A model generated the notes under the pieces. That model did no database searches and was not told the DNA's origin. It worked only from the letters and a program-made list of their open reading frames with translations. Below are positions 3-1,103 of a DNA stretch of 1,103 bases, in pieces. This DNA comes from Escherichia coli. GTDB taxonomy: Bacteria; Pseudomonadota; Gammaproteobacteria; Enterobacterales; Enterobacteriaceae. The stretch's first letter is position 1; each line of letters opens with the position of its first letter. The stretch lies in NCBI RefSeq assembly GCF_003334255.1, contig NZ_QOWU01000174.1; one strand, 5' to 3'. The translations under genes and the position numbers were made by a program.

Positions 3-27
3 GTAAGCGTACAGCCTGAACCGTCTG
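3..27 (+). repeat. Putative left terminal inverted repeat (IRL) of the IS66-family element; inner boundary approximate
   Basis: Begins GTAAGCGTACAGCCTGAACCGTCTG. IS66-family termini characteristically start 5'-GTAA. The matching right IR is outside the window, so the length cannot be confirmed. Confidence 0.5.
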
Positions 28-73: not shown

Positions 74-475
74 GTGGGAACCAAAGTGTCAGATATGCAG
101 AAAAATGTGACTCCCGGCAGGCGAAAAGGCTGCCCTAATTATCCTCCCGAATTTAAACAGCAGCTCGTTGCTGCCTCCTGTGAACCCGGGATATCCATCT
201 CAAAACTTGCTCTTGAAAATGGCATTAACGCCAATCTGTTGTTCAAATGGCGACAACAATGGCGCGAGGGAAAGCTGCTATTACCTTCTTCAGAGAGCCC
301 CCAGCTACTTCCTGTGACTCTCGATGCAACTGCCGAACAGCCAGAATCGCTCGCAGAGGACCCGGAAACCCTCAGTATCAGCTGTGAGGTAACGTTCCGG
401 CACGGGACGCTCCGCTTCAATGGCAATGTCAGCGAAAAGCTCCTGACTCTGCTGATACAGGAACTGAAGCGATGA
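74..475 (+). CDS. tnpA: IS66-family OrfA/TnpA, small helix-turn-helix accessory protein (133 aa from the GTG at 74; true start may be GTG 86 or ATG 95)
   Basis: ORF 74..475 in frame 2. The segment ISKLALENGINANLLFKWRQQW looks like an HTH, and the C-terminus is leucine-rich (KLLTLLIQELKR). It is first in the operon and its TGA stop overlaps the tnpB ATG. GGGA at 77..80 lies 5 nt upstream of the in-frame GTG at 86, a plausible Shine-Dalgarno; the in-frame ATG at 95 is another candidate. Confidence 0.85.
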   Translation: MGTKVSDMQKNVTPGRRKGCPNYPPEFKQQLVAASCEPGISISKLALENGINANLLFKWRQQWREGKLLLPSSESPQLLPVTLDATAEQPESLAEDPETLSISCEVTFRHGTLRFNGNVSEKLLTLLIQELKR

Positions 476-819
476 TCCCGTTACCTTCCGGGACCAAAAT
501 TTGGCTGGTTGCCGGTATCACCGATATGAGAAATGGCTTCAACGGCCTGGCTGCGAAAGTACAGACGGCGCTGGAAGACGATCCCATGTCCGGCCATGTT
601 TTCATTTTCCGGGGCCGCAGCGGCAGTCAGGGTAAACTGCTGTGGTCCACCGGTGACGGGCTGTGCCTCCTGACCAAACGGCTGGAGCGTGGGCGCTTCG
701 CCTGGCCGTCAGCCCGTGATGGCAAAGTGTTCCTTACACAGGCGCAGCTGGCGATGCTGCTGGAAGGTATCGACTGGCGACAGCCTAAGCGGCTGCTGAC
801 CTCCCTGACCATGCTGTAA
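472..819 (+). CDS. tnpB: IS66-family OrfB/TnpB accessory protein (115 aa)
   Basis: ORF 472..819 in frame 1: MIPLPSGTKIWLVAGITDMRNGFNGLAAKV...RQPKRLLTSLTML. Size and sequence match my recollection of IS66 Orf2/TnpB. The ATG at 472 overlaps the tnpA TGA at 473..475. AGGA at 459..462 is a plausible RBS 9 nt upstream. Stop is TAA at 817..819. This protein is unrelated to the IS200/IS605 TnpB nuclease. Confidence 0.9.
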   Translation: MIPLPSGTKIWLVAGITDMRNGFNGLAAKVQTALEDDPMSGHVFIFRGRSGSQGKLLWSTGDGLCLLTKRLERGRFAWPSARDGKVFLTQAQLAMLLEGIDWRQPKRLLTSLTML

Positions 820-844
820 ATCTCTTTATCCTGGTTGTCACAGA

Positions 845-870
845 ATAAGCCCGGTAAAATACGGGCTTAT
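845..870 (+). promoter_or_regulatory. Perfect stem-loop (9-bp stem, 8-nt loop) overlapping the tnpC start codon
   Basis: ATAAGCCCG at 845..853 pairs with CGGGCTTAT at 862..870; the loop is GTAAAATA at 854..861. The 3' arm includes the A and T of the tnpC ATG (869..871) and the only SD-like GGG (863..865). No U-tract follows, so it is not a typical intrinsic terminator. Confidence 0.55.
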
Positions 871-1103
871 GAACGACATCTCTTCTGACGACATCCTCCT
901 GCTGAAACAGCGCCTGGCCGAACAGGAAGCGCTGATCCACGCCCTGCAGGAAAAGCTGAGCAACCGGGAGCGCGAAATAGACCATCTGCAGGCGCAGCTG
1001 GATAAACTCCGCCGGATGAACTTCGGCAGTCGTTCCGAAAAAGTCTCCCGCCGTATCGCACAAATGGAAGCCGATCTGAACCGGCTTCAGAAAGAGAGCG
1101 ATA
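869..1103 (+). CDS. tnpC: IS66-family transposase OrfC/TnpC, N-terminal fragment (5' partial; runs off the window)
   Basis: Open frame from ATG 869 to the window end with no stop: MNDISSDDILLLKQRLAEQEALIHALQEKLSNREREIDHLQAQLDKLRRMNFGSRSEKVSRRIAQMEADLNRLQKESD. Hydrophobic residues recur at 3-4 spacing (I9, L12, L16, I23, L26, L30, I37, L40, L44, L47), suggesting a coiled coil. It is absent from the ORF track only because it has no stop within the window. Confidence 0.85.
   Translation, partial: MNDISSDDILLLKQRLAEQEALIHALQEKLSNREREIDHLQAQLDKLRRMNFGSRSEKVSRRIAQMEADLNRLQKESD

Follow-up and report, generated by a model that had tools for sequence, protein, structure and literature searches.

Stop/start overlap of tnpA and tnpB in the IS66-family insertion sequence ISEc8 of Escherichia coli and its probable role in coupled translation

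Introduction

How is the second of two small accessory proteins of an insertion sequence made when its start codon overlaps the stop codon of the first? This question is raised by a window of 1103 bases of E. coli DNA (the window being the whole stretch that was analysed), in which tnpA and tnpB share the tetranucleotide ATGA. An earlier note on this sequence had read the overlap as a classic arrangement for coupled translation, one that tends to hold the two proteins at a fixed ratio. The overlap is real, ordinary and already known. For IS679, Han et al. reportedly described in 2001 an ATGA overlap of the tnpA stop and the tnpB start, with tnpB in the -1 phase, and are said to have read it as translational coupling. 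The description of the IS66 family in ISfinder/TnPedia is reported to cover the tnpA-tnpB-tnpC layout, the ATGA overlap, the GTAA terminal repeats and the 8-bp target duplication. A literature search that did not extend to the main IS66 papers, which were beyond its reach, returned no paper discussing coupling in IS66 and no direct measurement of it for any element of the family.

Matches to the window are present in 3826 of 5426 complete E. coli genomes, and the overlap could tie together the outputs of two accessory proteins in an element carried by this many genomes. It also offers a simple handle on the roles of TnpA and TnpB in IS66 transposition, since a displaced tnpA stop would be expected to leave the cell short of TnpB. 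The overlap itself adds little that is new, being the most frequent arrangement in bacteria; a side observation on the expression of tnpC is the more useful lead.

The element and its genes

The window covers the left 1.1 kb of an ISEc8-type insertion sequence of the IS66 family and shares 99.8% identity with many chromosomal copies in E. coli. The features discussed here are collected in Table 1. The left terminal inverted repeat (IRL) starts 2 nt into the window. In a full copy of the element (L001) the IRL, GTAAGCGTACAGC..., pairs with the right inverted repeat (IRR), ...GCTGTACGCTTAC, in 25-nt arms that are 80% complementary. This copy is 2442 bp long and is flanked on both sides by the 8-bp direct repeat GATTGATG, the target duplication. 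L001 thus shows two traits of the IS66 family, terminal repeats that start with GTAA and a target duplication of 8 bp.

Table 1. Features of the ISEc8 window, with coordinates counted from its first base
Feature	Position	Strand	Basis or remark
Left terminal inverted repeat (IRL), begins GTAAGCG	3..24	+	Pairs with right end in full copy L001
tnpA, IS66-like accessory protein, 126 aa from ATG 95	95..475	+	RefSeq annotation, NCBIfam, ORF list
Weak Shine-Dalgarno-like AGGA, inside tnpA, 9 nt before tnpB ATG	459..462	+	Duplex with 16S 3' end
ATGA: tnpB start (472-474) overlapping tnpA stop (473-475)	472..475	+	Sequence, ORF list
tnpB, IS66-family accessory protein, 115 aa, Pfam PF05717	472..819	+	NCBIfam, RefSeq annotation
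Nine-base-pair hairpin: arms ATAAGCCCG (845-853) and CGGGCTTAT (862-870), loop GTAAAATA (854-861)	845..870	+	RNA fold
-10-like hexamer TAAAAT, 8 nt before tnpC ATG, overlaps hairpin loop	855..860	+	Candidate internal promoter
tnpC 5' part, IS66/ISEc8 DDE transposase, runs past window end	869..1103	+	RefSeq annotation of a 99.6% identical copy

The gene boundaries in Table 1 agree with the annotations of this full copy, a RefSeq copy 99.6% identical to the window, which map to 95-475 (tnpA), 472-819 (tnpB) and 869 onward (tnpC). The open frame of tnpA is listed as 74..475, and GTG 74 is a possible alternative start. Its product, a helix-turn-helix protein, scores 96.9 bits with the NCBIfam model for IS66 TnpA (NF047595, curated cut-off 74), and the tnpB product scores 115.4 bits with that for IS66 TnpB (NF033819, curated cut-off 50). 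As both pass their cut-offs, the identification of the genes as IS66-family tnpA and tnpB in the earlier note was right. A precomputed record of PF05717 is found on all close TnpB homologues. This TnpB is unrelated to the RNA-guided TnpB of IS200/IS605.

In the 99.6% identical copy, tnpC is annotated as a 1539-nt gene for an IS66-like ISEc8 family transposase. The 78 aa of TnpC that lie inside the window gave no family match by themselves, and its frame contains no in-frame start from the stop at 806 to ATG 869. A search of the window against Rfam returned a sole match, isrJ on the minus strand, which is below threshold (20.7 bits against 37, E = 0.39) and is taken as chance.

Conservation of the tnpA/tnpB junction

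Bases 469-478 read GCGATGATCC. With respect to tnpA, tnpB is read in the -1 frame, and the coordinates that had been given for the overlap are exact by both the sequence and the list of open reading frames. Is such an overlap unusual? ATGA occurs four times in the window (472, 526, 869 and 1016), against about 4.3 expected by chance. In E. coli the commonest spacing of same-strand genes is -4 nt, and 24% of same-strand pairs are spaced between -8 and +6 nt (PMC10666635). A single ATGA overlap is therefore unremarkable. What goes beyond chance is the conservation of the overlap as the tnpA/tnpB junction, not the tetranucleotide per se.

Diverse TnpB proteins were aligned and the alignment was then used to fetch 80 loci of other species from contigs representing one genome per species. 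These loci come mostly from beta-, gamma- and alphaproteobacteria and are related by descent; compared with the window, their TnpB proteins are 59-98% identical and their TnpA proteins 23-57%, except for one near-identical locus. NTGA was found at the homologous junction in 76/80 loci. In 69 of the 80, the TnpA-homologous frame is open to the TGA and overlaps tnpB by 4 nt (56 ATGA, 11 GTGA and 2 TTGA). A further seven have NTGA and a tnpA that has diverged too far to be detected, is cut off where the contig ends or carries an internal frameshift. The remaining four comprise two 7-nt overlaps (ATGCTGA and ATGTTAG), one long overlap and one degenerate copy. The 69 verified junctions lie in 68 distinct 60-nt contexts, and the 30 nt upstream of them carry just 0.07-0.9 bits per position.

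More distant members were found in 16 loci from phage records. Fourteen of these are distant (TnpB 33-52% identical), from human-gut scaffolds and from Leptospira and Streptococcus phages, and two are closer E. coli elements (66% and 75%). A frame lies upstream of tnpB in 15 of the 16, and it overlaps tnpB by 1-17 nt in 14 of these 15: the junction is ATGA in two loci, TGATG in one and a 7-17 nt overlap in eleven, with a 2-nt gap in the last. One of the 16 loci has no tnpA. In the IS66-type unit of Streptococcus phage phiStag1 (L165), no tnpA can be recognised ahead of tnpB, and the annotation gives the leucine-zipper part of the transposase a small ORF of its own.

The comparison with junctions of other IS66-family members, which had been proposed as a check in the earlier note, came out in favor of its claim, with the NTGA overlap kept across proteobacterial members and other short overlaps in distant ones. 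In its exact ATGA/NTGA form the overlap is typical of the proteobacterial clade; stop and start lie close together throughout the family.

A scan of viral contigs yielded only near-identical copies of ISEc8, which were used for allele counts only. Upstream sequence is available for 76 such copies in prophage contigs, and in these the junction is ATGA in 47, TTGA in 28 and GTGA in one. Over the part homologous to window 452-481, the prophage-contig copies (L082-L161) fall into two main alleles, AGGAACTGAAGCGATGA in 44 copies and GGGAGCTCAAACGTTGA in 28. The second allele has a TTG start together with a stronger Shine-Dalgarno-like GGGAG. One locus with the TTGA allele (L003) has a TnpB that is 96% identical to that of the window and a TnpA that is just 57% identical, a contrast which hints at a reassortment of tnpA and tnpB through recombination close to the junction. 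Among ISEc8 copies and relatives the start codon and the Shine-Dalgarno sequence drift and the overlap stays, which marks the overlap as the retained feature.

Initiation of tnpB

Most likely tnpA and tnpB share one mRNA and are coupled in translation by termination-reinitiation, a reading to which we give a probability of roughly 0.8. The ribosome that terminates tnpA at UGA would sit right over the tnpB AUG and, having released TnpA, would reinitiate at this overlapping start codon. The synthesis of TnpB would then depend on that of TnpA and scale with it, and reinitiation would supply most of the TnpB. The weak AGGA may help to hold the ribosome in place; it is not what is conserved. The purpose of such an arrangement would be to set the TnpA:TnpB ratio, possibly as both proteins act together.

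Termination-reinitiation is favoured by the conserved overlap, by Shine-Dalgarno sequences that are not enriched before tnpB, by a scan for promoter-like and terminator-like sites between the genes and by published reporter experiments. In the window the pair is co-directional with a stop/start overlap, as coupled pairs are. A simple consensus scan found no promoter-like and no + strand terminator-like site between tnpA and tnpB. Of 14 overlapping pairs tested with reporters, 13 proved strictly coupled, E. coli contributing five (PMC6728339). Coupling requires an overlap or a very short distance, and it was almost abolished when the upstream stop was moved about 20 nt away (PMC10666635). The claim of coupled translation in the earlier note is thus supported by the retained NTGA overlap, by a tnpB that has no conserved Shine-Dalgarno sequence and by the coupling of published overlapping pairs. 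Its claim of a fixed ratio is a general expectation that the sequence does not show. It is plausible by analogy, given the published enrichment of short overlaps in genes for subunits of heteromeric complexes (PMC10666635).

The alternative that survives best, although it is unlikely, is that tnpB is initiated independently, with the 30S subunit binding AGGA 459-462 de novo and the 4-nt overlap being mere gene packing. The spacing of 9 nt is acceptable and the duplex with the 16S 3' end is worth -4.3 kcal/mol, so that AGGA could allow a degree of independent initiation; in some relatives a stronger GGGAG or GGGAGG stands in this place, and the Shine-Dalgarno contribution at overlapping pairs differs from gene to gene (Huber et al. 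2019, PMC6728339). However, AGGA is a weak motif, matched by 24% of all 20-nt windows in this sequence, and it is not conserved in relatives. In a survey of the 69 relatives that had no positive control, and in which tnpC starts likewise scored low, Shine-Dalgarno sequences before tnpB are no stronger than in coding background (-2.86 versus -2.90 kcal/mol, p = 0.66), whereas the overlap is kept in 76/80 loci. The strict coupling of the E. coli pairs tested with reporters also argues against it (PMC6728339).

RNA structure around the start of tnpB was considered as well. In the minimum free energy fold of 420-520, bases 460-465 in the AGGA region are paired with about 505-513 (z = -2.25). Junction windows of the 69 relatives fold slightly more stably than controls (-38.7 versus -35.3 kcal/mol, base composition uncorrected). 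A conserved structure that masks the initiation region is not supported, as accessibility in the 69 relatives equals that of controls (0.389 versus 0.380, p = 0.60).

It is very improbable that the junction is only a by-product of protein constraint, in which a TnpB that begins Met-Ile forces ATGAT with no effect on expression. The second tnpB codon is ATC, ATT, ATA or ATG in 68/69 loci, and any frame that reads TGA there has to stop; the invariance of the A at 475 could partly reflect this conserved Met-Ile start instead of selection on the stop codon. Such a constraint neither explains why tnpA keeps a constant frame that is open right to the junction despite a poorly conserved C-terminus, nor accounts for the 7-17 nt overlaps of distant members whose TnpB begins differently (MF, ML).

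A programmed -1 frameshift that yields a TnpA-TnpB fusion, as in orfA/orfB of the IS3 family, was rejected as hardly credible: tnpB does lie in the -1 frame, a heptamer (G_GGA_AAG) does occur in the tnpA frame at 268 and a few database proteins are such fusions (P0160, P0174, P0242 and P0245), but TGA 385 closes the tnpB frame, so that a ribosome shifting at 268 would stop some 40 codons on, short of tnpB, no X_XXY_YYZ heptamer lies in the frame overlap of the window or of the 69 relatives (a stretch of at most 30 nt in 13 of them), and the linkers of the fusion proteins are of low complexity and look out-of-frame, as indels would give.

A -1 shift at the heptamer (267-273) would give a shortened TnpA with an altered C-terminus and no fusion, and the heptamer is probably there by chance. 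The four fusion proteins are cluster representatives in which a TnpA-like N-terminus is joined in frame to a full TnpB via a low-complexity stretch. They are most likely products of indel-derived pseudogenes or sequencing errors, and fusing the tnpA and tnpB frames takes little.

Expression of tnpC

How is the transposase itself expressed? The tnpB-tnpC spacer of the window (820-868) is 49 nt long, compared with 29-30 nt in the commonest class of relatives. The hairpin at its end, taken from a fold of 815-900, has a free energy of -23.3 kcal/mol and z = -3.5, with 0/200 shuffles as stable, and the A and U of the tnpC AUG lie inside its 3' arm. The model fold suggests that this hairpin could block tnpC translation on read-through transcripts. 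Spacer hairpins in relatives are not universal (mean z = -0.93, 27% below -2), and the start codon is paired in 32/59. A consensus hairpin of fixed register in the spacer was considered and rejected, as the arms pair in differing registers between loci (alignment A2, by eye).

No Shine-Dalgarno sequence was found before tnpC in the window, and the tnpC starts of relatives score low. A hexamer of the form TAnnnT, with at least 4/6 matches to TATAAT, was looked for in the tnpB-tnpC spacers of loci L005-L080. In 41 of the 57 distinct contexts 5-8 nt separate the end of such a hexamer from the tnpC ATG, a pattern that recurs at 0.6% of control positions and at 0/67 tnpB starts. The variants include TAAACT, TAACAT, TAGGAT, TACACT, TAAAAT and TATAAT, in spacers of 19 to 171 nt. 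TTGTAA-N17-TAAACT-N6/7-ATG is the pattern of the most frequent spacer class, in which the -35-like TTGTAA includes the stop codon of tnpB, and in an alignment of 24 spacer sequences TTGTAA, TAAAC and ATG are invariant or nearly so. In several distant members, boxes of the TATAAT type lie farther upstream and precede a clear Shine-Dalgarno sequence.

The geometry of the hexamer before tnpC suggests a putative internal sigma-70 promoter and a leaderless transposase mRNA. For ISEc8 itself the case for a leaderless tnpC is weaker, because the best -35 match in the window, TTGTCA (835-840), is just 14 nt from TAAAAT and a consensus scan of the window found no promoter. If the spacer promoter is real, the hairpin would exist on read-through transcripts only and would hide the tnpC start there. 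We tentatively suggest, at somewhat less than even odds, that IS66 elements are expressed as two modules. The first would be a strictly coupled tnpA-tnpB pair, with no separate initiation signal for TnpB. The second would be tnpC, transcribed from a conserved internal promoter in the spacer with the transcript starting at or next to the ATG, and thus leaderless; in ISEc8 the hairpin would hide the tnpC AUG on read-through transcripts only. Fold-back inhibition has been described for IS10, and the hiding of the tnpC AUG on read-through transcripts is likened to it. The literature search, with the main IS66 papers beyond its reach, returned no mention of a tnpC promoter or a leaderless mRNA.

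Comparison with known systems

ISEc8 shows no essential difference from IS679 and the IS66 family as described. It has the same three-gene layout, and the GTAA ends and the 8-bp duplication are confirmed here.

The coupled gene pairs of E. coli (Huber et al. 2019, PMC6728339; Huber et al. 2023, PMC10666635) resemble tnpA-tnpB in being co-directional, with a -4 nt ATGA junction and, within the 3' end of the first gene, a Shine-Dalgarno sequence whose importance varies. These pairs were tested by reporters and premature stops, whereas the coupling of tnpA-tnpB is predicted. The published enrichment of overlaps concerns subunits of heteromeric complexes, and a TnpA-TnpB complex is putative.

The orfA and orfB genes of the IS3 family likewise follow one another within a transposable element, and orfB is in the -1 frame. 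In IS3 a slippery heptamer and a long frame overlap lead to a fusion transposase. ISEc8 differs from IS3 in that its overlap is 4 nt long and holds no heptamer, its tnpB frame is closed upstream, and its transposase is encoded by the third gene.
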